64,000 bases of DNA from an uncultured Planctomycetales bacterium (GTDB lineage Bacteria; Omnitrophota; Gorgyraeia; Gygaellales; Profunditerraquicolaceae), in the NCBI GenBank assembly GCA_964545575.1, contig CAZJFL010000004.1:9512-73511 (forward strand), in the 5' to 3' direction. Shown here in pieces: positions 32,400-58,503 of this stretch. Every line of letters starts with the position of its first letter. Positions within the stretch are counted from its first letter, which is position 1. The notes beneath the pieces were generated by a model. That model did not search any database. It was not told the origin of the DNA and saw nothing but the letters and a program-made list of their open reading frames with translations. The translations under genes and the position numbers were made by a program.

Positions 32400-34478
32400 T
32401 TAAGTCTGCAAAATTGTGTCGGCTGCGGCTAAAACATCATCTACGCTGATAGCTTTAAGGCAGGCGAACTCTTTTTTACAGTTATGCGCCAGGCATTCAA
32501 TACATCCTACTGCCTTATGCAGATATCTGTCTTTTTTGCCTACCGGCCCCCAGCGTTTAGGGCTTAAGCCTTTTTGGCCTCTGCCGAAAATAGCAATTAC
32601 CGGCGTGTCGACACTAGAAGCAATATGCACCGGGCCGGAATCGTTAGAAATAAATAAAGCGCACCTCTTAAGCAAACTGGCTAATTGGCTCAGAGAAGTC
32701 TTACCCGCCAGATTAATTGCCGGAGAGCGCATATTCGCCAGCGCAAGCTCTGCTTTTTTTGTATCTTTTGGGCCGCTGATAATCAGGGTTTTAAAACCGT
32801 ATTTTTCTATTAACCTGTCGGCGACCTGGGCGAATCTTTCGTTGGGCCAGACCTTAGAAGGGCAGCTTGCCCCGGGATGAATAGCCAGAAGCCTATCTGT
32901 TTCTTTTATCCCCTCCTGGCGGAATAAACTCTCCACCCATTTTTCTGCTTCCGGCCTGAGGGGGATATATAATTCTTTATCTTGGGGAGTAATCCCTAAG
33001 TGCGCCAGCAGTCCAAGATTATAATCCAGCTCATGCTTTTCTCCCAGCTGTTTAGTATGCTTTATCCGGTCGGTAAGCAAAAACCCCATTTTACGGTGGT
33101 AACCTATTCTTCTGGGTATCCCGGAAAAAAACGCCACTAGATGCACGCGGTTGGTAGGATGAAGGATGAGTGCCAAATCAAACTTTTTCTGTTTTAAGTT
33201 TAAAGCAAACTTAATAGACCCCAGCCAGCTTTTCTCTTTTGCGTCTTTATCGTAAATAATCACTTCATCCAGATAAGGATTACCTTCCACTATCTCTTTT
33301 GTATAGGGGCTGACCATCATCGCGATATAGGCATGAGGGTATTTATCCCGGAGCGCCTTAATTACCGGTGTCGATAAAAGCACGTCTCCGACCCTATCCG
33401 TACGCGCTATTAAGATACGTTTAAAATCTGCCTCTAGACCCTGAACCCTGCCTGCCTGCCGGACAGGCAGGAACCCTGAACCCTGAACTAAAATATTTAT
33501 TACCTGCCTTAATACATCTTCTACCTTTACCAGGTGCATGCAGTCTAAAGTTCGGAACCTGCATTCTGCCTTCTCGCAGGGCCGGCAGAAGATTTCTTTT
33601 TTTACCGTAGCCCAAACACCCGACCAGGGCCCGTATTTTTTATCGCTGGTCGGGCCAAAGATTGCCACAATAGGTAGATCTAAATAACTGGCCAGATGCA
33701 GGACTGCGCTGTCATTAGTAATCAGGAGGCTTGCTTTTCTTAGTAAAGCGCCCAGCTGCGAGATCGTGGTCTTGCCGGCAAGGTCCAACAGGGAATGCGA
33801 AGATTGCTCGCCGATATATTTTGTGATAAATGCATCGGCCCTATCTCCTACCAGAATAACCTTTGCTGCTAATTCTCCTATAATCCGTTCTGCAAGCTGG
33901 GCGAACTTTTCTTTGGGCCATCTTTTAGTAGAGCTTCTGGCTCCCGGAGCAATAATAACTATTTTATCGTGTTGGGCTATGCTGTTTTCTTTGAATATAT
34001 TTTCGACATATTCCCTGTCCTGCGGCCCGATGCATAGGGAGCTCTCTATTGTCTTTTTCGCCTCCGAACCCTGAACTCTGCCTGCCTGCCGGACAGGCAG
34101 GAACTCTGAACCCTGAACTCTACTTAAATGCCTATCCTTCATATGTCCGCTACCCCGCAAAAAAATAGGCGCTTTGTATCTGGCAGGAAGCAACAATCCG
34201 AAAAAACTGTTGCGTAAATCCACGACCAGATCAAAATGTTCTTTTTGAAGGCGGCCAAACAGCTTTATTTTTTCTTTCAGCCGCGCATGTTTGTCATAGA
34301 TAATCAGGTTATCTACGGCAGGATTAGCCTCAAATATTCCTTTCGGGCGGGGGCCTGAGACAACGGTGATTTTAGCCTGCGGAAACTCCTTCCTTAAATA
34401 ATCCAGCGCCGGCAGGGTCAGTATCACATCTCCGATATTACTTAAGGTAACGAACAATATTTTATTGATCTTTGTCAT
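32400..34478 (-). CDS. Tandem fusion of two GT9 ADP-heptose:LPS heptosyltransferase modules
   Basis: Two full GT9 units (each ~330 aa with the GDVILTLPA / GDVLLSTPV N-motif). The palindromic repeat element encodes LPVRQAGRVQG at the inter-module junction and in a loop of module 1. Confidence 0.8.
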   Translation of the reverse strand: MTKINKILFVTLSNIGDVILTLPALDYLRKEFPQAKITVVSGPRPKGIFEANPAVDNLIIYDKHARLKEKIKLFGRLQKEHFDLVVDLRNSFFGLLLPARYKAPIFLRGSGHMKDRHLSRVQGSEFLPVRQAGRVQGSEAKKTIESSLCIGPQDREYVENIFKENSIAQHDKIVIIAPGARSSTKRWPKEKFAQLAERIIGELAAKVILVGDRADAFITKYIGEQSSHSLLDLAGKTTISQLGALLRKASLLITNDSAVLHLASYLDLPIVAIFGPTSDKKYGPWSGVWATVKKEIFCRPCEKAECRFRTLDCMHLVKVEDVLRQVINILVQGSGFLPVRQAGRVQGLEADFKRILIARTDRVGDVLLSTPVIKALRDKYPHAYIAMMVSPYTKEIVEGNPYLDEVIIYDKDAKEKSWLGSIKFALNLKQKKFDLALILHPTNRVHLVAFFSGIPRRIGYHRKMGFLLTDRIKHTKQLGEKHELDYNLGLLAHLGITPQDKELYIPLRPEAEKWVESLFRQEGIKETDRLLAIHPGASCPSKVWPNERFAQVADRLIEKYGFKTLIISGPKDTKKAELALANMRSPAINLAGKTSLSQLASLLKRCALFISNDSGPVHIASSVDTPVIAIFGRGQKGLSPKRWGPVGKKDRYLHKAVGCIECLAHNCKKEFACLKAISVDDVLAAADTILQT
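33438..33488. repeat. Palindromic element family 1 copy (GAACCCT heptads flanking CCTGCCTGCCGGACAGGCAGG), in-frame at the GT9-GT9 junction
   Basis: Seen directly; encodes VQGSGFLPVRQAGRVQG on the minus strand. Confidence 0.9.
34066..34119. repeat. Palindromic element family 1 copy, in-frame within GT9 module 1
   Basis: gaaccctgaactctgcctgcctgccggacaggcaggaactctgaaccctgaactc. Confidence 0.9.
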
Positions 34479-34499
34479 CTCGCAATGCGCCTAAACTAT

Positions 34500-35603
34500 C
34501 TATTTTTTTATCGCTATCTTTGCCTGCGCTAAGACTTCCTCCGGCGTAATTGCCTTCATGCAGCGGTTGTCTTTACAGCCGACCACATAGCAGGGTATGG
34601 CGCAGCCGACATCTTTCTGTAAAATAATCACGTTATTTGTAGGGTAGGGGCCGGTTATTTCAGGCGAGGTGGGGCCGAAAAGCGCAATTATCCTCTTTGC
34701 GCCTACGGCATTAGCAATATGCAAAGGCCCGGTGTCAGCCGTGATAAAGAGGTCGAGCCTCTTAAATAACGCGCCTAACTGTTTTAAGTTAAATACCCCA
34801 CAGGCGATAATGGGTTCGTTTTTCATCTGCCGGCGTATCTGATTAGCCAAAGCCGAGTCCGAGGCGCTGCCTGAGATTACTACCTTAGCCTCCAGCTGGC
34901 TGATTAACTTATCCGCCAGAGCTGCCCAGTGTTCTCCCGGCCAACGCTTGGGGCTCCAGTTCCCTCCGGTATTTATCCCGATTAAAAGGTCACCTCTCGT
35001 AATCCCTTTTTTATTCAAGGCCTCTTCGACAAAACGCAGGTCTTCCTCGCCGATAAAGAACTCGGTAAACCTGTCCTCGCACCTTAACCCTGCCTTTTCG
35101 ATGATGTTTAAGTAATAATCTATGCGGTGCAGGCTATGGATATCGGGAGCCACGATCTTTTTTGTGAGCAGAAAGCGGCGTTTTTTGGTAAGATAGCCTA
35201 TCCTCTCCGGTATTGCGGCGAGCCGGCAGATCAGCGCCCGCGTCAGCGACCGGTGCAGTAAAAATGCCACGTCGAAATCTTTGGCTTTGAGATACGAAAT
35301 AAACTTCAGTTTTTCCACCGTGCTCTTATGCCTGTCTTTTTCATCAAAGATAATAATCTCATCCAGATGCGGATTGCCTTTTAAAATATGGTAGCAGCGG
35401 CTGGGAACTATGCAGGCGATAAAACTCTTAGGGTAATTACGGCGGATGTTTCTGATGGTGGCGGTAGAAAATAAAACATCTCCCAGCCAGTTTACGTTAA
35501 AGATAAGGATGCGTTTATACATGCCGGTACTCCAAGTATAATTTTTCTGTTTCGCCAAGCATGTCTTCTTGCGAGAAATGCTGCCGGATAAATTCTTGCG
35601 CAT
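34500..35603 (-). CDS. GT9 heptosyltransferase (WaaF/WaaC-like)
   Basis: GT9 fold; probable true start at the internal Met (MYKRILIFNVNWLGDVLF, ~35522), which removes the overlap with the upstream GT4. Confidence 0.8.
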   Translation of the reverse strand: MRKNLSGSISRKKTCLAKQKNYTWSTGMYKRILIFNVNWLGDVLFSTATIRNIRRNYPKSFIACIVPSRCYHILKGNPHLDEIIIFDEKDRHKSTVEKLKFISYLKAKDFDVAFLLHRSLTRALICRLAAIPERIGYLTKKRRFLLTKKIVAPDIHSLHRIDYYLNIIEKAGLRCEDRFTEFFIGEEDLRFVEEALNKKGITRGDLLIGINTGGNWSPKRWPGEHWAALADKLISQLEAKVVISGSASDSALANQIRRQMKNEPIIACGVFNLKQLGALFKRLDLFITADTGPLHIANAVGAKRIIALFGPTSPEITGPYPTNNVIILQKDVGCAIPCYVVGCKDNRCMKAITPEEVLAQAKIAIKK

Positions 35604-36633
35604 GAGCCCCTAAAAGGCTCGGCCTTGTCTTATCCCGAAGCAGCCCTAATATAGCCGAAGATAATTCTGTGGGCTCGGCCGGTTTAACCAGCAAGCCGTT
35701 ATATCCGTCTTTAATCAGGCTTCTTATCCCTCCGATATCAGAGCCGATCACGGCCAGGCCCGCTGCCATCGCCTCGATCAGGCTTAAACCTAAACCTTCT
35801 GCGAGCGAGGGCATGACAAATAAATCCATCACCGCCAAAATATCCCTGGCCTCCTTAACCGAAGGTATAAAATAAACATTTTGTGTAATTCCTAAACGGC
35901 GGGCCAGAGCTACTAAGTCCTGTTTCATTTTGCCGTCTCCCACGATCAGTAACCGGGCATCGGGAAACGTACCTAAAACCTCTTTCATCGCCTCGATAAG
36001 ATAAATATGGCCCTTGACATCCGATAACCTGGCTATAATCCCCACTACCGGGCCGTTGCCCAAGCCTAATTCTTTCTTTTTTTCAACTCTGAACTCTGCC
36101 TGCCTGCCGGACAGGCAGGAACTCTGAACTCTGAACTTATCTACGTCTATACCATTATGTATTAAGCTGATATTTTCTTCCTTCACCTTAAAATCTTCGA
36201 TAAGATGTTCTTTAACCGCTTCGCTGATGGCAATAACTTTTAGCCCCCAGCAGGGAAAAATCCGGCGGAAAATACGCTGCTTAAAGAAACCGTGGCAGGT
36301 GGAAATGTATGGCTTTCCTGAAAAACGGTGGATTAAACCGGCTACTACCTGGGTGACGCGCGTATTAGCATGAATGATCTCTATATTTTTTTCTTTTACC
36401 TGTTTAAGCAACTTCAAAATACTGATAAAAACCCCGGGGCTTACCTCCTGTTTTGTTGCCAGCGGCACCGGGATATGGACTATGCCTTCCTGGCTAAACT
36501 TAGAGAGAAGCTCTCCCCCTCCCGAAGCCAGATATACCTGATGGCCTCTTTTTCGCATACCGCCGGCTAAAGTCAGGAGATAGCTGGTAACTCCGCCGGT
36601 GTTCAAATGGTTTGTCAAATAGAGAATATTCAT
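35515..36633 (-). CDS. GT4 glycosyltransferase (WaaG/RfaG-like)
   Basis: GT4 N-terminal GG motif (TNHLNTGGVTSY), C-terminal E-x7-E region; palindromic element inserted in the inter-domain linker. Confidence 0.8.
   Translation of the reverse strand: MNILYLTNHLNTGGVTSYLLTLAGGMRKRGHQVYLASGGGELLSKFSQEGIVHIPVPLATKQEVSPGVFISILKLLKQVKEKNIEIIHANTRVTQVVAGLIHRFSGKPYISTCHGFFKQRIFRRIFPCWGLKVIAISEAVKEHLIEDFKVKEENISLIHNGIDVDKFRVQSSCLSGRQAEFRVEKKKELGLGNGPVVGIIARLSDVKGHIYLIEAMKEVLGTFPDARLLIVGDGKMKQDLVALARRLGITQNVYFIPSVKEARDILAVMDLFVMPSLAEGLGLSLIEAMAAGLAVIGSDIGGIRSLIKDGYNGLLVKPAEPTELSSAILGLLRDKTRPSLLGAHAQEFIRQHFSQEDMLGETEKLYLEYRHV
36085..36137. repeat. Palindromic element family 1 copy, in-frame in the GT4 linker (encodes KFRVQSSCLSGRQAEFRVE)
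   Basis: caactctgaactctgcctgcctgccggacaggcaggaactctgaactctgaactt. Confidence 0.9.
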
Positions 36634-38723
36634 TTTAATAATTTATCTACCGCCTGCAATACCTCTTCCGGACTGATTGCCTGCATACAATCAATTTTTT
36701 TACATTTTGGTTTATAACAAGGGCTGCAGGGAAGATCTTTTTTAACTACGAGATAGTTTTTTGCCGGTGCCAGATGCCGTAAAGGGTCTGTTGGGCCGAA
36801 AAGAGCTACAAAAGGGGTGCCTGCGGCGGCAGCGATATGCAGGGGCGCTGAATCCGAGGATATATAGACGTTGCATTTTTTAATCAGGCAGGCGAGCTGA
36901 TTCACCGTGGTCTGGGCGGTGGCGTTGATCGGGGCGACCCCTTTGACGCCAGCCATAATCAGGTTAGCCTGCGGCAGATCTTTTTCTGTTCCGGTTAAAA
37001 TAACCCGTATATCCCGGCGCGATAACTCTTCGCACAACTTTAGCATATTACCTAGCGGCCAGTTTTTAGTAAGCCAACGAGAGCTTGCGCTGATATTGAC
37101 TCCGATTAGTTTCTGGTTGGGGCTGATCCAGCTTGATTTCAATAATTCCTCTATATAAATCCGGTCTTCTTCGGCCGGCCAAAGCTCTAAAGCCGTATCT
37201 TTTAAATCTATACCCAGCATCTTCAATATCCTGAATTGATGCGTTAGCGGGTCTATTTGCGGCTTTTCGTCTTTGATGCGGTGGTTAAGCAGAAAGCCGA
37301 ATTTTTTATTATCATATCCGTAACGGTCTAGGGAGAAAGTAAGCCCGGATAAGATATGGCTCTTACGGTTATTTTGCAGGTCAATCACAATATCGAAGTT
37401 CTTCTTCCTTAAAGAAGCGCCTAATTTTAACAGGCCGCGCAGACCTTTATCTTTATTCTGCAAATCGCAAACCAGCAATTCATCGATATAAGGGCAACGC
37501 AAAAGCGCATCTTTTGAGGCGTCTCCCACCAGAAAGGTGATTTTATAATTCTGCGCCGGGAATTTTTCCCTTACCGCCTTGATTGCCGCCGTAGAAAGTA
37601 TGATATCCCCCAGAGAGCTAAACTTGATCAGCAAAATCTTAAAATTCTCCAGTGCTTCTTTATAGACATTCGTGGTATTCCTGACTAATAGCTCTGCCGT
37701 ATATTTTTCCTTTACTTTTTGATAAGCGTTTTCCGCCAGGACCCGCGCTAACTCCCGGTCATTAAATATTCTTAAGGCGGCCTCTGCCATGCTTGCCGGG
37801 TCAGCGGGAGGAACGAGCAGCCCGTTTTTACCGTCTTCGATAATATCGATCACGCCTCCTACGGTAGTCGCAACTACCGGCACTCCGACAGCCTGCGCCT
37901 CTAAGATCGCCCTCGGAAAAGCATCGTGCGTAGTGGAGGCCAATACTACCAAGTCTAAGTTCCTTAAAATTCCGGGGACATCCTTCTGATTACCTAAAAA
38001 TTCGGTGCAGTGCCACAACCCCAGCCTCCTGACTAAAACCTGCACCTGTTCTTTATAGACTTCTTTGGACGGCGGGGCATCGCCGACTATCCAAACCTTT
38101 AGATGAGGGATGGTTCTTGCGACCTTGGCCATCGCCTTAATAAAATGCAGGTGACCTTTTAGCGGCGTGATCCTTCCGATTATCCCTACATTAAACTCTT
38201 CTAATTTTTTCTTCTCCGGGGCTTTATACTGGAATCTTTCCAAGTCTACGCTGCGCGGGATTAAACGTATCCTCTCCTGAGGCACGCTGAAATCTTCGAT
38301 CATGTGCTTGGCCACAACCTGGCTCGGGCAGATCACAAATTTGGCCCAACCCATCGGGTAACTGAATAAATGCTTGGTATAATATCCGTGGCAGGTAGTG
38401 ACCAGCGGCCGCTTAGTCTGTCTACAGGCAAAATAGGCAATCCAGGCAGGTACGCGCGAACGCGCATGTACAATATCTATCTCTTCTTTTCTAATGATCT
38501 CGGATAACTTAGGGATCATTTTGAGGATATTAAAAAAGGATTTTTTATGCACTGGCAGCTGATAGTGGATAACGCCGTTCTCCTCTAATTCTTTAACCAG
38601 CGCTCCGCCGCCAGAGACCACCACCGCCTTCATCCCGAGCTTCGCCAGGCGAATTGCCAGATCAACGGTCCCGGTCTCCACCCCTCCTACATTTAGTTCC
38701 GGCAGTATCTGTAATATTTTCAT
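36630..38723 (-). CDS. Fusion of GT4 glycosyltransferase (N-terminal) and GT9 heptosyltransferase (C-terminal)
   Basis: N-half resembles GT4 (ILQILPELNVGGVETG), C-half GT9 (FSSLGDIILSTAAIKAV); 697 aa. Confidence 0.75.
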   Translation of the reverse strand: MKILQILPELNVGGVETGTVDLAIRLAKLGMKAVVVSGGGALVKELEENGVIHYQLPVHKKSFFNILKMIPKLSEIIRKEEIDIVHARSRVPAWIAYFACRQTKRPLVTTCHGYYTKHLFSYPMGWAKFVICPSQVVAKHMIEDFSVPQERIRLIPRSVDLERFQYKAPEKKKLEEFNVGIIGRITPLKGHLHFIKAMAKVARTIPHLKVWIVGDAPPSKEVYKEQVQVLVRRLGLWHCTEFLGNQKDVPGILRNLDLVVLASTTHDAFPRAILEAQAVGVPVVATTVGGVIDIIEDGKNGLLVPPADPASMAEAALRIFNDRELARVLAENAYQKVKEKYTAELLVRNTTNVYKEALENFKILLIKFSSLGDIILSTAAIKAVREKFPAQNYKITFLVGDASKDALLRCPYIDELLVCDLQNKDKGLRGLLKLGASLRKKNFDIVIDLQNNRKSHILSGLTFSLDRYGYDNKKFGFLLNHRIKDEKPQIDPLTHQFRILKMLGIDLKDTALELWPAEEDRIYIEELLKSSWISPNQKLIGVNISASSRWLTKNWPLGNMLKLCEELSRRDIRVILTGTEKDLPQANLIMAGVKGVAPINATAQTTVNQLACLIKKCNVYISSDSAPLHIAAAAGTPFVALFGPTDPLRHLAPAKNYLVVKKDLPCSPCYKPKCKKIDCMQAISPEEVLQAVDKLLK

Positions 38724-40723
38724 AAAATCCTCTTTAGCGCCTCGCTTACGGTCAGGTTATCAGAAAGGGGCTGGATTTCTGGCTTTTTTTCCCACAACTC
38801 CTCTAGCACCCTCCCTAAATTAGCTGCCTCGCTGATATATATATTTTTTCTCTCTATAAGGCTAGCCAAGAACCTCTTGTGTTTTGCCCCTACTCCTGCG
38901 GCAGCAAAAGTCAAAACATAACGGCGGCTCGCCACAGCCTCGGAAATCATAGAGATGCTTTCCGGAGAAGTTATTACCAGGCGGCTCGCGCCTAGTATCC
39001 CGCCCACGGCAAAGGGCAGGTTTTTCTCATTGGCGATCACCAGAAACCTGCAGCGCGGATAATCGCTGAATTCCGCCCTGACTAACTCTTCTGCCTCTTT
39101 CGGGGTCCGGCGCGAAGTAGTCACCAGTATCAGCGCGTCATTTTTCTCTAAGAATGCCTTTACCTGGCTGATTACTTCCCGCAGAGAATCCCGGCTTAAG
39201 CGGAAATCCTTATTATCTCCTCCGATAAGCATCCCCAAAACCAGGTCTTTGTCAATCTTCGCCAAAGACTTCAAGAGCGCGGCTTCCTCTTTCAGCAAGT
39301 CCTCGTCTATTAAGTTTAACGCGCCCTCGATTAGCACGGTATTTTTCTTAAAAACCGGCCTGTGGCTTTGGCTAAAGGAAGCCAAACCCTGCCTGCCGGC
39401 AGGCAGGCATTGCCTTGCTGGCTGATCGTGCCGGGGTATAATCACCAAGTCAAATCTCTGCATACTGAAAACAGAAGGCCGCATCAGTACTACCGACTTA
39501 GCCAAGTTTTCCTTGGATAAAATAAAATTAACCGCGGCGAGCCCAGAACCGCAGGAAATAATCAAGTCGTATTTTTTTCTCGTCAGGGCTTGATAGGTAT
39601 CGGCGGTTAAAAATTTCTTCAGGCACCAGAGGCATCCCTGACAGTGGTATTTTCCGGCGAGGCAGGCGCTAAAAGTAAGGGCCTGGCTGCTCAGCCTATT
39701 TTTAAACTTTACCTCTATAATCTCGCTCTGGCTGTTTATCCCCCGGTCTTTAAAATGCCTTTGGGCTATCGCGGCCGTAGCCTGTGCCTGGCTGAGGTGG
39801 CCGGCTTTACCATCGCTTAAAATTAGGATATTCCTCTCTTGGGAATACTTCCAGATTTTATAAAACCAGAGGTATTGTTCAGGGTACCTGCTGATATAAT
39901 CCTGGAATATCTGCATCAATCCTTCTAGATTACGGCGGACGTCTTCTTCGCTATTACCGGTTTTTATCAGCTTAAAGGGGGGCACAAAAATAATTTTCAT
40001 ATACGGGCCGCGCAGGCGAACATAAAAACCCGGGATAATTGCCGCATCGTACTTTAAAGCCAGCCTCACCGCCCCGCTTGCCATAGAGGCATCCCGGCCG
40101 AAGAATCTAACCGGAACGCCGGAACTTCCTCCCTGATCAACGGTCATACCTATCGCCTGGTTATTTTTCAGTATCTGAATTAACTGACGGGTCTGATTTT
40201 TCCTCTGGACTAATTTAGCCCCTTTTTGGCTGCGGTAGGCATTCAGCAGCCGGTTTAAACGGAGAAGCTTTTGTTCGCGTATAAGTAAGAATAAAGGGAA
40301 GCCTAAGTTTGTGCAGACGACGTTAGAGATTTCCCAGCTTCCTCCGTGCGCCCCCAAAAGGATTACTCCTTTTCCCTTTTGAAAACCCTCCTCGATATGC
40401 TGCCTGCCTTCGCAAGTGACGTATTTGGCGATATATTGCTTATTCACCCGGGGAATAAGCAATATTTCTATCAGGCTCTGCCCGAAGTTGCGGTAAAAAT
40501 CTTTTGCGAGCTGTTTTAACTGGCGCGGTGAGAGCCTGTCCCCGAAAGCGGTTTTCAGGTTTGCGTAGGCGACTGCCCGGTGCTTGGCATCAAAACAATA
40601 AAACAATTCACCGATGGCCCGGCCTAAAAAGAAACTTACAAACAAGGGCATTACCCTAAAAATCGGCCCTGCCAGCCTAAAGATTATATATCCTGTCCAA
40701 TCGGCTAAAGAACTCTTCTTCAT
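38720..40723 (-). CDS. Lipid A biosynthesis acyltransferase (LpxL/HtrB family) fused to an ELM1/DUF1022-like C-terminal domain
   Basis: N-terminal 300 aa matches lauroyl/myristoyl acyltransferase; C-terminal domain of unknown function contains a palindromic element insert (QPARQCLPAGRQGLASFSQ). Confidence 0.65.
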   Translation of the reverse strand: MKKSSLADWTGYIIFRLAGPIFRVMPLFVSFFLGRAIGELFYCFDAKHRAVAYANLKTAFGDRLSPRQLKQLAKDFYRNFGQSLIEILLIPRVNKQYIAKYVTCEGRQHIEEGFQKGKGVILLGAHGGSWEISNVVCTNLGFPLFLLIREQKLLRLNRLLNAYRSQKGAKLVQRKNQTRQLIQILKNNQAIGMTVDQGGSSGVPVRFFGRDASMASGAVRLALKYDAAIIPGFYVRLRGPYMKIIFVPPFKLIKTGNSEEDVRRNLEGLMQIFQDYISRYPEQYLWFYKIWKYSQERNILILSDGKAGHLSQAQATAAIAQRHFKDRGINSQSEIIEVKFKNRLSSQALTFSACLAGKYHCQGCLWCLKKFLTADTYQALTRKKYDLIISCGSGLAAVNFILSKENLAKSVVLMRPSVFSMQRFDLVIIPRHDQPARQCLPAGRQGLASFSQSHRPVFKKNTVLIEGALNLIDEDLLKEEAALLKSLAKIDKDLVLGMLIGGDNKDFRLSRDSLREVISQVKAFLEKNDALILVTTSRRTPKEAEELVRAEFSDYPRCRFLVIANEKNLPFAVGGILGASRLVITSPESISMISEAVASRRYVLTFAAAGVGAKHKRFLASLIERKNIYISEAANLGRVLEELWEKKPEIQPLSDNLTVSEALKRIL
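39365..39420. repeat. Palindromic element family 2 copy (GCCAAACC-CTGCCTGCCGGCAGGCAGG-CATTGCCTTGC), in-frame in a CDS
   Basis: Shares more than 35 bp of identity with the intergenic copy at 41771-41816. Confidence 0.9.
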
Positions 40724-41717
40724 TTTTGTTTATCTTTAATTCTATACCTAGCACAAACACTCCCAACTCCCAACTTCCAGCTCCTGGCTGCGGGAGCCGC
40801 ACCGCATCCTTCTCGGTAGTAATGATGGTGTCTATGCCTTTGTTTTTCGATGCCCTTGCGATATGATCCATATCGTAAGGGGCATAATTATGGTGATCGG
40901 GGAAGCGTAAGGATAAACCTACCTTAATCCCTAAATTATCAACCAGGTTTTCAAAGGAATCGGGGTCGCCGATGCCGCAAACCAAAGTTACCTGCCTGCC
41001 TCTAAACACATCCGCACCAAAGAACAGAGAGGGTTTATCGATTTTATAAAAACCAGCGGGGTTATGCATAGCTTCAAAAACTGCGGCTTTGGCGTTAATG
41101 CTCCTTAAGAAATCTTTGATCTCCTGCGTATCCGGATTAAGGTTAGTCTTAGTTAAAACAAAAATATCCGCACGCTTTAAAGAAGAGAGCGGTTCGCGTA
41201 AAATCCCCCGGGGTAACATCTGGCGGTTTCCAAAGGGGTCGGTCGCGTCGATGGTTACGATCTCCAAATCCTTCTTGAGACGCCACTGCTGGAAGCCGTC
41301 ATCCAGGATGACCGTATCCAGGCCGTATTCGCTCACTGCCCTGTTTGCGCCGCGCCTCCTGTTTGCGTCTACTATTACCGGGACATCGGGCAGGCGCCGC
41401 CTGAGCATCAAAGGCTCATCCCCTATACCCACCGCTCTTTTATAACCGCGGCTTAAAACCGCTAACTTACGGCCCCGGCCTGCTAAATAGCGGGCAATAA
41501 ACTCTACCAGCGTAGTTTTGCCTGTTCCGCCTACGGTAATATTGCCGACGCTAATAACTTTACAATTCAGGCGATCAGGCTTAAGCAGAGAAAAAAAGAG
41601 CAAGATCCTGATTACCAGGCCGTAAAAAAGAGAGCAAATAAAGAGAAAAATCTTTAAAATTCCGGCGATAAAACCGCGCTCTTGGTCAGTAGCTAAATTA
41701 TAGAGGTATCTAAGCAT
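40677..41717 (-). CDS. lpxK: Tetraacyldisaccharide 4'-kinase
   Basis: P-loop VGGTGKT and the LpxK family fold; 346 aa. Confidence 0.88.
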   Translation of the reverse strand: MLRYLYNLATDQERGFIAGILKIFLFICSLFYGLVIRILLFFSLLKPDRLNCKVISVGNITVGGTGKTTLVEFIARYLAGRGRKLAVLSRGYKRAVGIGDEPLMLRRRLPDVPVIVDANRRRGANRAVSEYGLDTVILDDGFQQWRLKKDLEIVTIDATDPFGNRQMLPRGILREPLSSLKRADIFVLTKTNLNPDTQEIKDFLRSINAKAAVFEAMHNPAGFYKIDKPSLFFGADVFRGRQVTLVCGIGDPDSFENLVDNLGIKVGLSLRFPDHHNYAPYDMDHIARASKNKGIDTIITTEKDAVRLPQPGAGSWELGVFVLGIELKINKNEEEFFSRLDRIYNL

Positions 41718-41755: not shown

Positions 41756-41878
41756 ATGGCTTTGGCTTGTATGGAAAGCCAAACCCTGCCTGCCGGCAGG
41801 CAGGCATTGCCTTGCCGGCTTATGGCTTTGGCTTATGTGGAAAGCCAAACCATTGCCTTACCGGCTTATGGCTTTGGT
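41756..41878. repeat. Composite intergenic copy of palindromic element family 2, with duplicated GGCTTTGGCTT-GGAAAGCCAAACC arm and core palindrome
   Basis: Seen directly; the two arm copies are 41756-41784 and 41823-41851. Confidence 0.85.
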
Positions 41879-42000
41879 GCTTATTCTTTAGCCACAATAT
41901 TTAATTTTAACACAAGCAATGAGTTATGCAACAATTCTTTAGGGGTAGCTAGGGCTTTAAAGCCGGGGTAAATCTTTGCGGAAGGAGTTAGATTTATTAT

Positions 42001-42723: not shown

Positions 42724-42730
42724 CGGTTTT

Positions 42731-48456: not shown

Positions 48457-49329
48457 TCAGGCGCGCGGATGCGCTTTGTCGTAAACGCTCTTTAATCTAT
48501 CCGTCGTCAGATGCGTATAAATCTGGGTGGTGGAAAGATTCGCATGGCCTAGAAGCTCCTGCACGCTCCTTAAATCCGCCCCGCGGTTTAAAAGATGGGT
48601 GGCAAATGAGTGCCTTAGCGTATGCGGCGATACCCCCCCTTTGAGACCGGCCAGATGTATATATTTACCCACTATGCCTCTTACCCCGCGGTCAGTAATG
48701 CGTTTTCCGTTTTTATTTAAAAAAACCGCCTTGGCCTGCTTTTTTCTTTTATTGAGATAATTTCCGATGGAAGTAAGCGCGGCCTCGCCTATCGGCGCGA
48801 TGCGCTCTTTCTTGCCCTTGCCCAAAACCTTAACTACGCCTGAGATAAAATCCACATCGTCAATACTTAAACCGACCAGCTCAGAAATACGTATGCCGGT
48901 GGAATAAAATGTCTCTAAAATCGCCCGGTCGCGCAAACTGCGCTCATCTACTTTCTTATTGATAAAGGTAGCGTTGATTAAACGCGTGACTTCTTCTTCG
49001 GTAAGAAACTGCGGCAGGTGTTTATCGGGCTTGGGGCTGGAAAGGATAAGAATGGGGTTAGTCTTAAGGTAGCCTTCGCGGGTAAGGAACCTAAAAAATG
49101 ACCTTAAAGTAGAAAGGTGGCGTAAGACGCTCCTGGTACCTAAGGTTTTTTCTTTTAAAACCGCCAGATACTTTCTTAAAAGCAGGTAATCTATTTTTTC
49201 CAGCGGTATTTCGCCTAAGAACTTATTGAAGCCGCTTAAATCGAGACGGTAATTAAGAATGGTGTGCTTTGAGTAATTTTTTTCGATTTCCAGATAGCGG
49301 ATGAACTTTTCCGTAAAACGGTCGATCAT
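48457..49329 (-). CDS. xerD: Tyrosine recombinase XerC/XerD
   Basis: R..HxxR..Y catalytic tetrad (HTLRHSFATHLL, LGHANLSTTQIYTHL), N-terminal SAM-like domain; 290 aa. Confidence 0.88.
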   Translation of the reverse strand: MIDRFTEKFIRYLEIEKNYSKHTILNYRLDLSGFNKFLGEIPLEKIDYLLLRKYLAVLKEKTLGTRSVLRHLSTLRSFFRFLTREGYLKTNPILILSSPKPDKHLPQFLTEEEVTRLINATFINKKVDERSLRDRAILETFYSTGIRISELVGLSIDDVDFISGVVKVLGKGKKERIAPIGEAALTSIGNYLNKRKKQAKAVFLNKNGKRITDRGVRGIVGKYIHLAGLKGGVSPHTLRHSFATHLLNRGADLRSVQELLGHANLSTTQIYTHLTTDRLKSVYDKAHPRA

Positions 49330-51323
49330 TTAGCTTTTTCCTCTGGAAGGGTACGCGAGGTAAACCTGCATTTGGGGAAATTTGAACAACCGTAGAAGAA
49401 TCCGCGCTTTGAGCGCCTTTCAATTAATTCGCCGCCGCATAGGGCTTCAGGGCATTTGACGCCGGTAGTAATGGATTTAGAAAACGCGCATTGCGGGTAA
49501 TCTGAGCAGCTCAAGAATTTTCCCCGGCGGCCCCACTTGATCACCATCGGCTTGCCGCATTTCTCGCAGACCTCTTCAGTATACACCACTTCTTTTTTAA
49601 TATTGGCCTGCGCAAAATCGAGGCTTACCTTAAAAGGCTGGTAAAAATCCTGCAAAACTTTTATTTTATCAATTTTTCCCTCGGCAATCTCATCCAGCTC
49701 TTCTTCCATCAGCGCGGTAAATTTTTCATCCATAATCTTGGGGAAGTACTCCACGAGCATCTCGCAAACCTTAAATCCCAGCTCGGTGGGATGAAAATAG
49801 CTCCTGATGCGGCGGGCGTAATCGCGTTGAATGAGCGTATAAATAATAGGCGCGTAAGTGGAGGGCCGGCCAATGCCGTCTTCTTCCAGGGACTTGACCA
49901 AAGAACTGTCGGAGAATCTCGCCGGAGGCTTGGTAAAATGCTGCGAGGGAATTAATTTAACTAAATCTAGGATATCTCCCTGAGCCAGCGGCGGAATAAT
50001 ATTCTTTTCTTTCTCGTCATTATTATTTTTGTTATATACTTTGGCAAAGCCGGCAAAGATAAGCTTGCTTCCTGAAGCGGTAAACAGGTATTTTTCGGCA
50101 TTGATATTTACCGTAGTGACAGAATAAAGTGCCGGCGTCATCTGGCTAGCCAGAAAACGATTATAAATCAAAGCGTATAATTTATACTGGTCTTCACTTA
50201 AAAAAGTTTTCAGGTTTTCGGGAGAATGGTCTGCTAAAGAAGGCCTGATGGCTTCATGCGCCTCCTGGGCAAACTTCTTGGCCTTATAAACATTGGGTGT
50301 TTTGGGCAGATAATCCTTGCCGAATTCTTTCGTAATCAGGTGCCTTATTTCTTTCAAGGCAATGGCAGAAACATTGGTAGAATCCGTGCGCATATAGGTA
50401 ATTAAACCCGTAGGACCTTCCTTGCCGATATCAACACCTTCGTATAACTCCTGCGCCACCATCATGGTCTTCCTGCCGTTAAAGCCCAATTTATTAAAGG
50501 CTTCCTGCTGCAGGGTGCTGGTAATAAAGGGCGGGTCGGGGTAACGTCTTTTTTCTGTATTTTTAATCTCGGAAACTACAAATTTCTTTCCGTCTATATC
50601 TACCACTATCCTGTCGGCTTCTGTTTTATTTGTTATCTTGGCCTTTTTGTCGGCAATTTTATCTAACTTGGCGGTGAACGAACTCTGAACTCTGAACTCT
50701 GAACTCTGAACTTTCTTTAACTCTACCTCGACCTCCCAATATTCCCGGGGGGTAAAGTTTTTAATCTGTTTTTCGCGGTCGATAATCAGTTTTAAAGCCA
50801 CAGACTGCACGCGCCCCGCGCTTAAGCCGCGCACGATCTTCTTCCACAATAAAGGGCTTAAGAAATAGCCCACAATTCTATCCAGTATCCTGCGGCCTGC
50901 CTGCGCTTCAATTAACTTCGTATCAAAATCGCGCGGCTTCCCAAAAGCTTCTTTTACTGCGCTAGGCGTAATCTCATGAAAGACTACCCGCAAAACTTTC
51001 TTTCCCTTAAATAACCTCTCCCTAAGCTGCCAACCGATAGCCTCGCCCTCCCGGTCAGGGTCAGTGGCAACATAAATGCACTCTGCATCCTTGGCGTCTT
51101 TTTTTAGAGCGGTTAATACCTTTTGCCTTCCCGAAATCACCACATATTCCGGCTTAAAATCTGCTTCTATATCCACGCCTAAGGTGGTCTTAGGTAGATC
51201 GATCAGATGCCCCATAGAGGAGACCACCGTAAACTTATCGCCGAGTATCTTGCCTATGGTTTTAGCTTTAGTAGGCGACTCCACAATGACTAAACTTTTC
51301 TTACTCATTTTAATTCCTGACAA
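49326..51323 (-). CDS. topA: DNA topoisomerase I with C-terminal Zn ribbons
   Basis: Toprim N-terminus (VIVESPTKAKTI), catalytic Tyr region, C4 ribbons; carries an in-frame GAACTCT heptad insertion (QSSEFRVQSS). Confidence 0.9.
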   Translation of the reverse strand: MSGIKMSKKSLVIVESPTKAKTIGKILGDKFTVVSSMGHLIDLPKTTLGVDIEADFKPEYVVISGRQKVLTALKKDAKDAECIYVATDPDREGEAIGWQLRERLFKGKKVLRVVFHEITPSAVKEAFGKPRDFDTKLIEAQAGRRILDRIVGYFLSPLLWKKIVRGLSAGRVQSVALKLIIDREKQIKNFTPREYWEVEVELKKVQSSEFRVQSSFTAKLDKIADKKAKITNKTEADRIVVDIDGKKFVVSEIKNTEKRRYPDPPFITSTLQQEAFNKLGFNGRKTMMVAQELYEGVDIGKEGPTGLITYMRTDSTNVSAIALKEIRHLITKEFGKDYLPKTPNVYKAKKFAQEAHEAIRPSLADHSPENLKTFLSEDQYKLYALIYNRFLASQMTPALYSVTTVNINAEKYLFTASGSKLIFAGFAKVYNKNNNDEKEKNIIPPLAQGDILDLVKLIPSQHFTKPPARFSDSSLVKSLEEDGIGRPSTYAPIIYTLIQRDYARRIRSYFHPTELGFKVCEMLVEYFPKIMDEKFTALMEEELDEIAEGKIDKIKVLQDFYQPFKVSLDFAQANIKKEVVYTEEVCEKCGKPMVIKWGRRGKFLSCSDYPQCAFSKSITTGVKCPEALCGGELIERRSKRGFFYGCSNFPKCRFTSRTLPEEKAK
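50677..50716. repeat. GAACTCT heptad array (about 5 units) without the core palindrome, in-frame inside topA
   Basis: Same heptad as the family 1 element flanks. Confidence 0.85.
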
Positions 51324-55008: not shown

Positions 55009-55107
55009 TTTTATCTGTTATGAGGTTTAAAACCTCGCCCTCATAACTATCACTATAATACTATTTTTATTAGATAAATCAATGATTTTAGATTATAATA
55101 ATAAAAG

Positions 55108-55220
55108 CCGTAACTCGTACGCTCGTAACTAGTAACTCGTAATCCAGGTCCCAAAAAAACATTTCTGCCGTAAGGCTTTAAAAATTACTAGTTACGAGTT
55201 ACTAAATTACTAGTTACTAA
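55108..55220. promoter_or_regulatory. Imperfect ~30-bp inverted repeats built from GTAACT(C/A)GTAA units flanking a 43-bp A-rich spacer, immediately 5' of the helicase start codon
   Basis: ccgtaactcgtacgctcgtaactagtaactcgtaa ... ttactagttacgagttactaaattactagttactaa. Confidence 0.6.
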
Positions 55221-55223
55221 ATT

Positions 55224-57101
55224 ATGCTTTACGACCGTTTTCAGCAGGAGGCAATCGAACATATCAATAACGGCCATTCCGTAATCGTCTCCGCCCCTAC
55301 CGGAGCCGGCAAGACCGCGATTGCCGAACACATTATCAATGAGTGCATCCAGCGTAACGTCGGAGTAATCTACACCGCCCCCATTAAAGCCCTCTCTAAC
55401 CAGAAGTTCCGCGATTTCCAGGTTAATTTTAAGGATAAAATCGGAATATTGACCGGAGATGTCTCGATAAACCCGGAGGCGCCGGTCCTGATCATGACTA
55501 CCGAAATATTCCGTAACAAGATTCTGGATGAACCCGGAAGCCTCCAAAGATACTCCTGGGTCATCTATGATGAAATCCATTATATCGATAACGAAGAGCG
55601 CGGCACGGTCTGGGAAGAATCCCTGATCTTTTTACCGCCGCATATGAAGCTCCTGGCGCTTTCCGCCACAATCCCCAATATCAAAGAGTTCGCCCAGTGG
55701 CTGGAGTCGGTGCATAAAAAACCGGTGCAGGTGGTGCTTGAAGAGAAGCGGCCGGTACCACTGCACTTCTTCTTCCACTGCCAGAATGAAATCCTAGATA
55801 AGTTCGAGCAGCTTAAAAAAATGCATTACGGCCGGCCTAATAAATTACACGCCCTCATAAATTACATCCGCCAGAACGAAGGCCTTCCCTGCATCTATTT
55901 TGTCTTCGGCAGAAGGCGTGCTGAAGATTTGGCCTTTGAGCTCTACGGTTATAATTTCCTGAATGACCAAGAAAAGGCCCAAATCGCCGAGCTTTACAAT
56001 TCCCTCTGCGAGCGCTTTGACCTGGCCCACGAAAAATCCGCCGCGCATATTTATCCGCTAATTCAGCGGGGGATTGCTTATCATCACGCCGGGATGCTGC
56101 CCACCTTAAAAGAAGTGATCGAGCGGCTTTTTACCAGCCGGCTGCTGAAAGTAATATTTACCACCGAGACTTTTGCGCTGGGGATAAATATGCCCAGCCG
56201 TTCGGTTATTTTTGACGAATTGCGCAAGTTTTACGGCCGCTATGTGCGCAACTTAAAAGTGCGCGATTTTTACCAGATGGCCGGCCGCGCCGGCAGGCGC
56301 GGTATCGATAAGGAAGGCTTCATCTATTGCCGGGTCAACCTGCAGAGAATAAGACCTGAAGAAGTAAAACAGGTGCTCTACGGAAAACCCGAAGAAGTCC
56401 GGAGCCAGCTGAATACTTCCTATGCTACCATACTTAACCTTTATGAAAAATACAAGGAGGGCCTTTTTAAAATCTACCCCCTCTCCCTGCACTATTTTCA
56501 ATCCCGTAAAAACGAACAAAAAGAAGCCTTAAAGCTGATTGAGAGCAAGCTTAAACTCTTAAAAGACACAGGTTTCATCGAATCCGGATCACTCACCCGC
56601 AAAGGGCAGTTCGCCAAAAGCGTCTATGGCTACGAATTAATTCTCTCGGAATTATATACCCGGGGCGTCCTGGAACAGGTAGATGAGTTTGGTTTAGGGG
56701 TTATTGCGGCGGCAGTGGTCTTTGAACCGCGCAAACACCAGAAGATTTTGCGACTCTCTAAGCCGGCAGATAAAATCAGGAGCCTAACTGACGAGCTTTA
56801 CGAAGAAATAAAAAAGCGCGAGATAAAATACCGCATTTATCCGATCAGCAAAAAACCCTATTTTCATTTAAGCGCCTGCATGGAGGCGTGGCTGCGCGGG
56901 ACCAACTTTGATAAAATCCTGCAATGCACCGATACCGACGAAGGAGAAGTAATAAGGTATTTCCGGATGAGTATTCAGATTTTAAGGGAGATTAACAAGG
57001 CCAAGGTCGCTTCTTATATCTTAAAGGAAAGGCTCGGAGAAACCATCCGGGTGATCAAGCGCGATATCGTAGACGCCGAGAAACAACTGCGCGAAGGCTA
57101 A
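55224..57101 (+). CDS. Ski2-like superfamily 2 DEAD/DEAH-box helicase
   Basis: Walker A APTGAGKT, DEIH box, SAT, QMAGRAGRRG motif VI; only plus-strand gene in the window; 625 aa. Confidence 0.85.
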   Translation: MLYDRFQQEAIEHINNGHSVIVSAPTGAGKTAIAEHIINECIQRNVGVIYTAPIKALSNQKFRDFQVNFKDKIGILTGDVSINPEAPVLIMTTEIFRNKILDEPGSLQRYSWVIYDEIHYIDNEERGTVWEESLIFLPPHMKLLALSATIPNIKEFAQWLESVHKKPVQVVLEEKRPVPLHFFFHCQNEILDKFEQLKKMHYGRPNKLHALINYIRQNEGLPCIYFVFGRRRAEDLAFELYGYNFLNDQEKAQIAELYNSLCERFDLAHEKSAAHIYPLIQRGIAYHHAGMLPTLKEVIERLFTSRLLKVIFTTETFALGINMPSRSVIFDELRKFYGRYVRNLKVRDFYQMAGRAGRRGIDKEGFIYCRVNLQRIRPEEVKQVLYGKPEEVRSQLNTSYATILNLYEKYKEGLFKIYPLSLHYFQSRKNEQKEALKLIESKLKLLKDTGFIESGSLTRKGQFAKSVYGYELILSELYTRGVLEQVDEFGLGVIAAAVVFEPRKHQKILRLSKPADKIRSLTDELYEEIKKREIKYRIYPISKKPYFHLSACMEAWLRGTNFDKILQCTDTDEGEVIRYFRMSIQILREINKAKVASYILKERLGETIRVIKRDIVDAEKQLREG

Positions 57102-57514
57102 AACTCCAGCCTATCCCCCACCTTAATTACGTTCTGCTTAACAAAACCCGAACTTACCTCTAATACATATTTGGCTTCTGCCGCAGGCGTGATATTCTCG
57201 CAGGTTTGCCGGCAGGGCGGGATATTTTCTTTTATCTCTACTATTCTTTTTTCCGCGTCGATCCAGATCATATCCAGGGGAAAACGCATATTTTTCATCC
57301 AGAAGACATGTATTTCTTCTTCCTCGAATATAAAAAGCATTCCTTGCTTTTCGCTTAAGCTATCCTTAAACATTAAACCGCGCTCTCTGGCGGCCGGAGT
57401 TTCGGCGATTTCCGCCTTGAGGCAGACATTCTTAATACAAATTTTCTGGTGATTCTGTGCGTAAGCTTTAGGAAGAAATAAAAATAAAAAAATAAAAGTA
57501 AATATCCGCGGCAT
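57098..57514 (-). CDS. DUF192 domain protein (secreted)
   Basis: Signal peptide then a DUF192-like core (ERGLMF...GMLFIF...FWMKNMRFPLDMIWID). Confidence 0.7.
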   Translation of the reverse strand: MPRIFTFIFLFLFLPKAYAQNHQKICIKNVCLKAEIAETPAARERGLMFKDSLSEKQGMLFIFEEEEIHVFWMKNMRFPLDMIWIDAEKRIVEIKENIPPCRQTCENITPAAEAKYVLEVSSGFVKQNVIKVGDRLEF

Positions 57515-58503
57515 TAAAATGGGGAACGCCCTGCCTTAAATTTTAGGTAATCCTGAATGATCTTTTTATGGTCAAAGGCAAAATCTAACTTCAAAACCTC
57601 GCTTAATTTTACTATTCTTATTGCCTTGGCATCATCGCCTGCTTTGGGCTTACCTTCTGCCCTTACCAGAAAAACCGTGTCGATAGTGTGAAATCGCGGG
57701 TCGCGCTGGGGGTCAGAATAGGTATGAAACTGTTTTACTTCTACAGCGTCCAAATTTGTCTCTTCTTTTACCTCCCTAATTACCGCCTCCTCTAAACTCT
57801 CGCCGTAATCCAGGAAGCCGCCGGGCAGGGCAAAGCCAAAAGGCGGGTTGCTGCGCTCGATCACCACAATCCCATCATCCCCGCCTGCCGGCGAGACGGG
57901 AATCTCAATGATAGCATCTGCCGTCATAAAAGGCCCCTGCTGTAATTTCCGGGTAACATAATCAAGATAGCTTATCACTCCTTTATTAAAGACGTCATAA
58001 GCCTCTAAATCGTACAGGCAGAAGATTATCTCTTTTAAGCTGGTCTTATTTTCACGCAGGTGCTTTAACACTTCCTGGGCCATGATTTTGGCGGATGCCA
58101 ACAGAGGAAATCCGCCTACGCCGCAGCCTAAGGCCGGAAAAGCGATTGATTCTATCTTTAATTCTTCGGCGACTTCCAAAGCGCTCTTACAGGAATTCCT
58201 GATTTTGATTTCATCAGTTTCGAAAATCCCTGCCTGCCGGCAGGCAGGCATCCCCATAGTCGCGGCATGGATTACATATTTAGCCGGTAAGCTCCCGGCA
58301 GAAGTAAATACCGCCTCGCCTATTTTTATGGGGCCTTTTTTTAGCGCTTCCTCCTCTATTGATTGGCCGCCCTTTTTCCTGATCGCGCCGGCAACCCCGC
58401 CGCCCATGGCTAACTTATTATTGGCGGCATTGACAATAGCCTCAACTTTTAATTCCGTAATATCGCCTTGGCAGATTTTAATTTCGGTCTCTTTAATCAG
58501 CAT
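57514..58503 (-). CDS. Macro domain (ADP-ribose binding/deacetylase-like) fused to NUDIX hydrolase
   Basis: N-terminal macro (CQGDITEL..AIVNAAN..GGGVAGAI); C-terminal Nudix box GGFLDYGESLEEAVIREVKEETNL; palindromic element in-frame in the macro domain. Confidence 0.75.
   Translation of the reverse strand: MLIKETEIKICQGDITELKVEAIVNAANNKLAMGGGVAGAIRKKGGQSIEEEALKKGPIKIGEAVFTSAGSLPAKYVIHAATMGMPACRQAGIFETDEIKIRNSCKSALEVAEELKIESIAFPALGCGVGGFPLLASAKIMAQEVLKHLRENKTSLKEIIFCLYDLEAYDVFNKGVISYLDYVTRKLQQGPFMTADAIIEIPVSPAGGDDGIVVIERSNPPFGFALPGGFLDYGESLEEAVIREVKEETNLDAVEVKQFHTYSDPQRDPRFHTIDTVFLVRAEGKPKAGDDAKAIRIVKLSEVLKLDFAFDHKKIIQDYLKFKAGRSPF
58222..58255. repeat. Solitary core palindrome CCTGCCTGCCGGCAGGCAGG in-frame in the macro domain (encodes MPACRQAG)
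   Basis: Seen directly at 58229-58248. Confidence 0.9.

Follow-up and report, generated by a model that had tools for sequence, protein, structure and literature searches.

The 64,000-nucleotide stretch of contig CAZJFL010000004.1 analysed here (GenBank assembly GCA_964545575.1, positions 9,512 to 73,511 of the forward strand; hereafter the window) carries seven copies of a perfect palindrome of 20 bp, CCTGCCTGCCGGCAGGCAGG, or of its 21-nt variant, CCTGCCTGCCGGACAGGCAGG, both referred to below as the core. The element is real, very small, shared across phyla and apparently mobile. We interpret the unit as an ultra-small, non-autonomous hairpin element that is copied precisely and without target duplication, a reading to which we assign a probability of about 0.62. 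An earlier note on the same DNA, made from the sequence alone, had described a selfish palindrome residing in-frame in genes. This description is partly supported: it was right in outline and wrong on the borders of the insert, its sub-families and its confinement to one lineage.

Four of the copies are exact 20-mers and three are 21-mers, which differ from the 20-mer by an extra A after the central CCGG (Table 1). The expected count of either sequence in 64 kb is 0, and dinucleotide-preserving shuffles produced no match. The 10-nt half of the core matches at 14 positions against 0.17 expected, with 12 of the 14 inside complete copies, and an edit-distance scan revealed a degenerate, clearly related eighth copy of 21 nt in the gene encoding a macro domain fused to a NUDIX domain (Macro-NUDIX). 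The two solitary half-sites are possibly a remnant of the core (16807) and possibly a remnant or a chance match (40991). The 20-mer folds into a hairpin with an 8-bp stem (−13.9 kcal/mol; 8-9 bp and −13.9 to −15.0 kcal/mol across core forms), and direct reading of the sequence shows no stop codon in any frame. All seven recurrences claimed in the earlier note were present, five of them exactly where it had placed them; the other two starts, 33447 and 36096, lie 3-4 nt upstream of the 21-mers at 33451 and 36099, the former marking an extra CCTG unit ahead of the 21-mer. Of the two half-sites it had proposed, 16807 is an exact 10-nt match and 43567 is not a half-site; the exact half-site at 40991 had gone unlisted.

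Five of the seven copies, as well as the decayed eighth, sit in open reading frames (ORFs) that stay open through the element. The four host ORFs all lie on the minus strand and encode a fusion of two GT9 glycosyltransferase halves (GT9-GT9; 32400-34478), a GT4 glycosyltransferase (35515-36633), an LpxL-ELM1 fusion (38720-40723) and Macro-NUDIX (57514-58503). In all four, full-length Pfam domain matches were found on both sides of the genic copies, which bears out the claim that these coding sequences are intact. The two remaining copies, at 15573 and 41785, are intergenic, as had also been recognized.

To delimit the insert, we compared filled and empty orthologous sites at the DNA level in 86 related loci (about 1 Mb in total; individual loci are given by L numbers). 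Homologues of Macro-NUDIX place the organism in Candidatus Omnitrophota, and in the orthologous Omnitrophota loci the insert proved to be the 20/21-nt core alone, with a gain of 7 amino acids in the measurable copies. Clean filled/empty pairs differ by exactly 20 or 21 nt and show no target duplication. In coding copies the frame is kept by three routes, namely the 21-mer, the 20-mer plus 1 nt, and the 20-mer plus 46 nt. The comparison thus confirmed the central proposal of the earlier note, a repeated palindrome that lies in-frame in genes and is absent at the same positions in close orthologues.

Macro-NUDIX, whose basic length is 315 amino acids, contains two such sites. Among 121 orthologues, about one fifth carry PACRQAG after VIHAATMG (site 1) and about one quarter carry PASPAGG after DAIIEI (site 2), with all four combinations of presence and absence represented. 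At site 2 the window has a clean insertion of 21 nt, placed between ATT and GAT, which is a core bearing an additional C and a single substitution. At site 1, the exact 20-mer is accompanied by one extra base in the T-run directly downstream, with PACRQAGI in place of D and a net gain of 7 amino acids. L121 and L123, the closest relatives, have the same gene order as the window at 81-87% nucleotide identity and lack both inserts; around site 2, the window and the empty L121 are 95% identical. Separately, five orthologues (P0004, P0042, P0054, P0079 and P0108 in alignment A1) carry a longer and different insert of 16-21 amino acids, DFSR..NK..GGIPP....WAG, in the site-1 loop, and this loop is therefore a recurrent landing or tolerance site.

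At the glycosyltransferase sites the core interrupts tandem heptamer arrays. L124 has the identical GT4 array uninterrupted and without core (KFRVQSSEFRV), the window being 21 nt longer in mid-array, and L134 has the same GT9-GT9 arrays without core, where the window gains 21 nt in the array middle. FRVQSSEFRV is the native GT4 linker, and the added part is CLSGRQA only (LPVRQAG only in GT9-GT9). The inserted peptides listed in the earlier note were mis-delimited, the actual additions being CLSGRQA, LPVRQAG twice and PVSPAGG, plus the net 7 amino acids at site 1. Nor are the heptads, described there as flanks present in threes, part of the insert: about two units lie on each side of the core, and the array is present in core-free orthologues. 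In the GT4 linker of L135 and L168, a core is found about 12 nt upstream of where the window has it. L130 and L138 have nested double cores at the GT9-GT9 sites, in L130 at the same site as the window copy at 34081, where other orthologues have arrays only. The cores of L135/L168 and L130/L138 are independent events at the same arrays. Nested copies were found in L144 and L272 as well, with entry at or beside the central CCGG.

The arms GCCAAACC / CATTGCCTTGC, which had been taken to define a second sub-family of the palindrome, belong to a separate hairpin repeat of ~46 nt (GGTTTGGCTT...AAGCCAAAGCC) that occurs with and without core and is translated into SQSHRP-type peptides; with the heptads pre-existing in orthologues, neither flank-defined sub-family stands. 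The repeat is present in the window at 39362-39424 and, in tandem, at 41756-41880, and in L124, L126, L128, L154 and L196. Its number after PRHD is hypervariable among LpxL-ELM1 orthologues, amounting to 0 to 85 extra amino acids (85 in L128). The core occupies the CAATG/GTTTGG junction of this repeat twice in the window and in L196. The neighbouring unit at 41851 has no core at this junction, nor do L124, L128 and L154; filled and empty junctions differ by exactly 20 nt, without duplication. Both states stand side by side at 41756-41880, where the first unit is filled and the second is empty. In the coding copy in LpxL-ELM1, the repeat and the core add up to 66 nt (46+20), and the frame is kept.

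The genic inserts are predicted to occupy surface loops or inter-domain linkers, in line with the original suggestion. In an AlphaFold (AF2) model of the window's Macro-NUDIX (mean predicted local distance difference test score, pLDDT, of 81), site 1 falls in the coil that connects strand 76-83 to helix 98-114, where residues 87-94 have pLDDT <50, and site 2 in a beta-hairpin turn between strands 194-202 and 210-217. By Pfam borders, the GT4 insert lies between Glyco_transf_4 (ends 166) and Glycos_transf_1 (starts 184), and the second GT9-GT9 insert between the two halves of the fusion.

Table 1 Core copies, half-sites and the core-free topA array in the window
Feature	Position	Strand	Context
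Exact 20-bp core	15573..15592	.	Intergenic; tip of longer hairpin 15556-15607 (CAGACTTACG...CGTAAGTCTG)
Solo exact 10-nt half-site CCTGCCTGCC	16807..16816	+	Intergenic
21-nt core variant, sense CCTGCCTGTCCGGCAGGCAGG	33451..33471	-	GT9-GT9 inter-domain linker; adds LPVRQAG; centre of GTTCAGG heptamer array, about 33436-33489
21-nt core variant	34081..34101	-	N-terminal half of GT9-GT9; adds LPVRQAG; within heptamer array, about 34066-34119
21-nt core variant	36099..36119	-	GT4, in the linker joining its two domains; adds CLSGRQA between VQSS and EFRV; within GTTCAGA array, about 36084-36137
Exact 20-bp core	39388..39407	-	LpxL-ELM1, after PRHD; nested in ~46-nt GCCAAAGCC hairpin repeat (39362-39424)
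Solo exact 10-nt half-site	40991..41000	+	Inside lpxK
Exact 20-bp core	41785..41804	.	Intergenic, upstream of lpxK; within two tandem 46-nt units (41756-41880)
Heptamer array GAACTCT x4.7, no core	50680..50712	-	topA
Degenerate 21-nt copy, sense CCCGTCTCGCCGGCAGGCGGG	57880..57900	-	Start of NUDIX half of Macro-NUDIX (site 2); adds PVSPAGG
Exact 20-bp core	58229..58248	-	Macro domain of Macro-NUDIX (site 1); frame rescued by 1 extra base

Across five diverged lineages, none of the 20 core positions at Macro-NUDIX site 1 varies, compared with 40 of 90 positions in the flanks. The same holds for synonymous third positions (0/7 in the core vs 16/20 in the flanks; Fisher p = 0.0004), which protein-level selection cannot explain; selection must act on the DNA or RNA itself, or else perfect copies are being renewed. 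The imperfect copy at site 2 varies between lineages. Mapped onto a neighbour-joining tree, the 23 carriers of site 1 require 16 changes and the 28 carriers of site 2 require 21, close to random labelling. All site-1 carriers share the same two-step 20+1 junction, and their patchy distribution is therefore attributed to allele exchange, precise loss or an unreliable tree and not to 16 insertions.

To assess the prevalence of the core beyond Omnitrophota, we scanned species-representative genomes for the 20/21-mer and obtained at least 120 loci, against about 1 expected (an estimate from the collection size). The matches listed include many groups of the Candidate Phyla Radiation (CPR)/Patescibacteria, Omnitrophota and Planctomycetota, Bacteroidota (among them isolates of Winogradskyella echinorum, Flagellimonas yonaguniensis, Longitalea luteola and Flavivirga sp.), Bdellovibrionales, Thermodesulfovibrionales/Nitrospira and Chloroflexi, and uncultured Gamma- and Deltaproteobacteria. 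Cyanobacteria were absent from the 80 titled loci of the matches listed. The flanks of the core in different genomes are unrelated to each other. A scan of IMG/VR yielded 65 viral stretches with the core and up to six copies on one 29.5-kb contig. The lineage specificity implied by the earlier note is contradicted by this occurrence of an identical 20-mer in many phyla and viral contigs. Queried by BLAST, collections of plasmids (7.3 Gb) and phages (2.3 Gb) from cultured hosts gave no exact copy of the core, only imperfect matches at chance level, and the core is thus no mere consequence of GC richness.

Outside the window the core is mostly intergenic, with 16% of copies in stop-free stretches of at least 900 nt compared with 53% of random positions. 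The share in long ORFs was 33/56 for the 21-nt variants and 41/156 for the exact 20-mers, the pattern to be expected were selection to filter for frame. In-frame cores were found midway through the FtsK_SpoIIIE domain of an FtsK from Saccharibacteria and in a NAD-dependent sugar dehydratase (Pfam GDP_Man_Dehyd / Epimerase) of a gammaproteobacterial metagenome-assembled genome (MAG). Transfer RNA genes are also hosts: a viral tRNA-Met gene that is perfect in other respects has the core in its variable loop (L244, about 2240-2330; L206, about 8570-8660), and a tRNA-Arg gene has it in the D-arm, before the 3' D-stem (L104). At L019, L044, L119 and L258 the core abuts a 5' tRNA fragment reaching to the D-loop, followed by non-tRNA sequence. 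ARAGORN, run after in-silico removal of the core, returned one odd tRNA case only; the true insertions at L104, L244 and L206 were found by eye.

The junctions were analysed with re-paired flanks as the control. Inverted flanks of at least 6 nt surround 14% of copies (2% in the control), meaning that these cores cap a hairpin older than themselves; the window's example is 15556-15607, where the fold around the core reaches −35.6 kcal/mol (z −6.2). Direct repeats of at least 6 nt within 20 nt accompany 26% of copies (5%), and abutting direct repeats of at least 7 nt accompany 8% (0.3%). The target-site consensus amounts to a weak T preference only, the first base outside the core being T in 41%. 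A fixed target-site duplication is ruled out by the clean filled/empty pairs, with a minority signal of mostly 7-8 nt remaining.

At the viral locus L240 (IMGVR_UViG_3300037242_000417; 8892-8946, 8967-9046 and 10396-10552), a carrier hairpin, GGGTGCCCCATCCTYG ... CRAGGGTGGGTC, holds either the core or a different palindrome, TCCGCCGCGGCGGA. The presence of two palindromes in one carrier therefore probably indicates a class of elements and not a single sequence, and several core types may share one mechanism. Related small palindromes, TCCGCCAGCTGGCGGA, were observed in L014 and L021.

No partner gene emerged from our searches, consistent with the earlier note, which named no protein or RNA partner. 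A Pfam scan of 48 of the about 60 window ORFs matched only housekeeping, lipopolysaccharide (LPS) and signalling genes and no transposase, reverse transcriptase, REP-associated tyrosine transposase (RAYT) or Y1 transposase. All-against-all BLASTP of 2,252 ORFs from 120 core-bearing loci found no family in more than 5 loci. We also considered the 1.4-kb segment between inverted core-bearing repeats of L240 as an autonomous version bounded by cores; this candidate was rejected, as no transposase-like ORF was apparent by eye (no Pfam scan was made).

The heptamer arrays that host the core are abundant in their own right. Among 91 tandem arrays in 1.05 Mb of Omnitrophota sequence (at least 3 copies, at least 85% identity), 68 have period 7, with 50 different units; arrays are 21 to 37 nt long, and 39 lie inside long ORFs. 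A 50-kb E. coli control contained no array passing this cut-off. Period 7-8 likewise dominates among core-bearing loci from other phyla and among the viral contigs. In-ORF array lengths are bimodal (14-19 nt vs 28-37 nt), with intermediate lengths occurring outside ORFs, which fits slippage in three-unit steps under frame constraint; in coding regions the reading frame limits arrays to about 5 units. Orthologous GT4/GT9-GT9 arrays retain equal total length with other, lineage-specific units (GTACAGA, ATACGCA, GAACCGA, ATTACGA, 8-mers and 10-mers), and distant orthologues have non-repetitive sequence of equal length at the same sites. The core-free array in topA, correctly reported in the earlier note, is 21 nt (three units, 7 amino acids) longer than in the syntenic L123. 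In a strict test of periodicity across the core junction in other phyla, about 2% of copies passed, and the association between core and arrays is therefore strong in Omnitrophota and modest elsewhere. The arrays may possibly be a larger puzzle than the core itself.

Further arrays were observed in the window at 8046-8077, 12772-12860, 20979-21010, 40759-40784 and 55185-55224 and in loci L124-L203. In-frame arrays, typically about 32 nt, occur in essential genes such as those for IspG (RLSTIDYRLST) and TopA. One array, AATGACA x4.6, lies in the N-terminal hydrophobic segment of a 580-amino-acid ORF (19302-21044, minus strand) without Pfam match.

The proposed mobile hairpin element resides in the centres of heptamer arrays, in other hairpin repeats, in the CCGG of other cores and in tRNA loops. 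We propose that a trans-acting, sequence-specific enzyme, encoded elsewhere and probably spread horizontally, would place the element, in the form of a folded single strand, in temporarily looped-out or single-stranded DNA, as in slipped heptamer arrays or cruciform tips. The same enzyme may excise or refresh copies, and selection would then purge coding insertions other than in-frame ones in tolerant loops. A wider version of this proposal, which we consider tentative and rather unlikely as a whole, regards this one 20-bp palindrome as a pan-bacterial, virus-borne and smallest mobile element, with a putative, horizontally spreading enzyme that would write, erase or refresh the core at looped or slipped DNA, the 7-bp arrays being its landing pads or footprints.

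Several observations weigh against a mobile hairpin element. A length of 20 bp is too short for classical transposase synapsis, and no transposition event, intermediate or enzyme was observed. The 8-10% of copies with abutting direct repeats, mostly of 7-8 nt (range 6-14), are at odds with a mechanism entirely free of duplication. No strand bias relative to the gene was seen among the asymmetric 21-mers (17:16), which thus give no support for an RNA intermediate. Finally, the carrier pattern at Macro-NUDIX site 1 weakens the case for frequent insertion there.

The main alternative, which we regard as unlikely, is a templated scar of break repair. Here the 20-mer would be written de novo at breaks or stalled forks by an enzyme carrying its own template, for example a reverse transcriptase, primase-polymerase or similar that copies a 10-nt template and then snaps back, and the enzyme gene, not the element, would move between phyla. 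Such a process would account for the letter-perfect identity across phyla, the lack of a target duplication, the 'fresh' appearance of perfect copies at an old site and the absence of a linked gene in the 120 core-bearing loci. The perfect two-fold symmetry, which reduces the core to 10 nt of information, points the same way, and the heptamer arrays resemble reiterative copying of a local 7-mer. Composite copies, however, look copied from the genome: the 21-mer has the same extra base in three genes, and the combination of core and 46-nt carrier recurs at two window loci and in L196. In addition, decayed copies remain in place, not rewritten, and neither a candidate enzyme nor a template was identified. 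We consider it improbable, and place it next in order, that the core is a structural motif useful to the host, a hairpin under selection as a protein-binding site, an mRNA-stabilizing or RNase III-type hairpin or a terminator, with the genic copies as tolerated by-products. Nucleotide conservation in excess of coding constraint, the very stable hairpin (−13.9 to −15 kcal/mol), the mostly intergenic location outside this genome and the vicinity of some copies to tRNA genes and terminators are all consistent with such a role. Yet selection on a hairpin would permit compensatory changes and would not preserve one exact 20-mer in more than 100 species across phyla, nor does it sit well with arbitrary contexts (protein loops, tRNA loops, nested copies) or with close relatives that differ in presence and absence. 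Rfam gave no match in the window and, in 18 core-bearing loci, only tRNA, tmRNA and signal recognition particle (SRP) RNA, all away from the core.

Ordinary local mutation, that is, slippage or quasi-palindrome template switching of CCTG/CAGG-rich sequence without any element, is strongly disfavoured. It draws on the composition of the core, which is made of CCTG/CAGG units, on the extra units in some copies (33447; L023 and L049) and on arrays that plainly evolve by slippage in ±3-unit steps, but the same 20-mer in unrelated flanks at least 185 times is not independently attainable, and the empty sites contain no CCTG seed. That the core is an artefact of sequencing or assembly (adapter, chimera or fold-back) we regard as negligibly probable: although a perfect palindrome found mostly in MAGs might raise this suspicion, it occurs in isolates, single-cell genomes and MAGs under contig names of several assembler conventions, its flanks are not inverted copies of one another, reading frames are kept, decayed relatives exist, and orthologues from independent samples share copies.

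Among known systems, the small dispersed repeats of cyanobacteria (SDR1-8; Nostoc and relatives) come to mind, which reportedly are hairpins of 21-27 nt that often lie within tandem heptamer repeats or mini-transposons, are self-nested, and have an inferred mobility without an enzyme; they are said to be confined to one cyanobacterial subgroup. The core resembles this description in its length of 20-21 nt, at the lower edge of the range, in its predicted stable hairpin and in its nesting within itself. The embedding is similar, with three window cores in heptamer arrays and two in the 46-nt repeat, and further cases in L130, L135, L136, L138 and L196, as is the inferred mobility with no enzyme known. 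It differs in its host, an omnitrophotan and not a Nostoc-type cyanobacterium, in the occurrence of one identical sequence over many phyla and viral contigs, in being a perfect palindrome and in its documented in-frame residence in housekeeping and LPS genes. Because of the size, the hairpin, the embedding in arrays or mini-repeats, the self-nesting and the lack of a linked gene, we class the core with the SDR kind as a new cross-phylum form. Going by the reported description, the closest analogue is thus these cyanobacterial repeats and not the elements of Rickettsia.

Rickettsia palindromic elements (RPEs), the comparison drawn in the earlier note, measure about 100-150 bp, add 30-50 amino acids and are not known outside Rickettsia. 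The likeness in behaviour stands, as both insert in-frame into functional coding sequences, become part of the protein at surface positions and have copies in RNA genes. Membership fails on size, given a core of 20-21 bp that adds 7 amino acids, and the core further departs from RPEs by its array embedding, its self-nesting, its spread across phyla and its omnitrophotan host. The mobile GC clusters of fungal mitochondria, about 30-60 bp long and without an encoded enzyme, are likewise GC-rich hairpin insertions in an AT-richer genome, some of them in-frame or in rRNA loops; they are longer, organellar and, as far as is known, lineage-restricted, in contrast to the 20-bp cross-phylum core.

Repetitive extragenic palindromic (REP) sequences and their doublets (REPINs), which are associated with RAYT transposases, are repeated, non-autonomous palindromes of about 20 bp (PMC3116915, PMC3733652; the former cites the SDR study of Elhai et al. 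2008, Genome Res 18:1484, as ref. 43). The core shares this size, high repetition, non-autonomy and hairpin structure. REPs are extragenic and imperfect, carry a GTAG or CGTC tag, usually come in inverted doublets, flank a RAYT gene and are species-specific (PMC3116915, PMC3733652), whereas the core and its flanks lack either tag, five of seven window cores are genic, and the window contains neither doublets nor a RAYT gene. MITEs (miniature inverted-repeat transposable elements) were rejected as well, since clean pairs show no duplication, only 8-10% of copies have abutting repeats, and the core measures 20 bp vs 50-500 bp. Membership of both groups thus fails for want of a REP tag, doublets, a RAYT gene or a fixed target duplication. 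The STRR (short tandemly repeated repetitive) sequences of heterocystous cyanobacteria are 7-bp tandem arrays (PMC2670836; Vioque 1997, cited in PMC2858038), as are those hosting the core; the arrays described here differ in occurring in Omnitrophota and other core-bearing genomes and in comprising 50 different units. A literature search for the core sequence found no paper.

If the core is mobile, a unit of 20 bp sets a new lower size limit for transposable-element behaviour. That it is present letter-perfect in viral contigs and in CPR, Bacteroidota, Planctomycetota and Omnitrophota implies a machinery that is conserved and widely exchanged. Through such insertions, proteins (TopA-linked arrays, FtsK, LPS glycosyltransferases, macro domains) as well as tRNAs can acquire small loops. 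The same inserts repeatedly create length differences between orthologues and mark very recent change in the genomes of uncultured lineages. They also extend the link between hairpin insertions and heptamer arrays beyond cyanobacteria and make the SDR/STRR question testable, including in the culturable Winogradskyella, Flagellimonas and Longitalea. Should the pan-bacterial version of our proposal be true, finding the enzyme would explain this cyanobacterial puzzle too.

Further observations concern the remainder of the window. A full-length serpin gene lies at 47029-48300 on the minus strand (Pfam Serpin, E = 4e-124), between kdtA and xerC; its stretch has the lowest GC of the window (0.43), and the gene may have been horizontally acquired. 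The GT9 ORF (34500-35603) and the GT4 ORF (35515-36633) overlap by 89 nt (35515-35603) as mechanically called, and the downstream gene probably begins later than this. A 129-amino-acid ORF at 15678-16067 (minus strand) has no Pfam match. The minus strand carries nearly all likely genes, and the only 2-kb bin without a negative GC skew is 48001-50000, which together suggests one replichore with a strong gene-strand bias.

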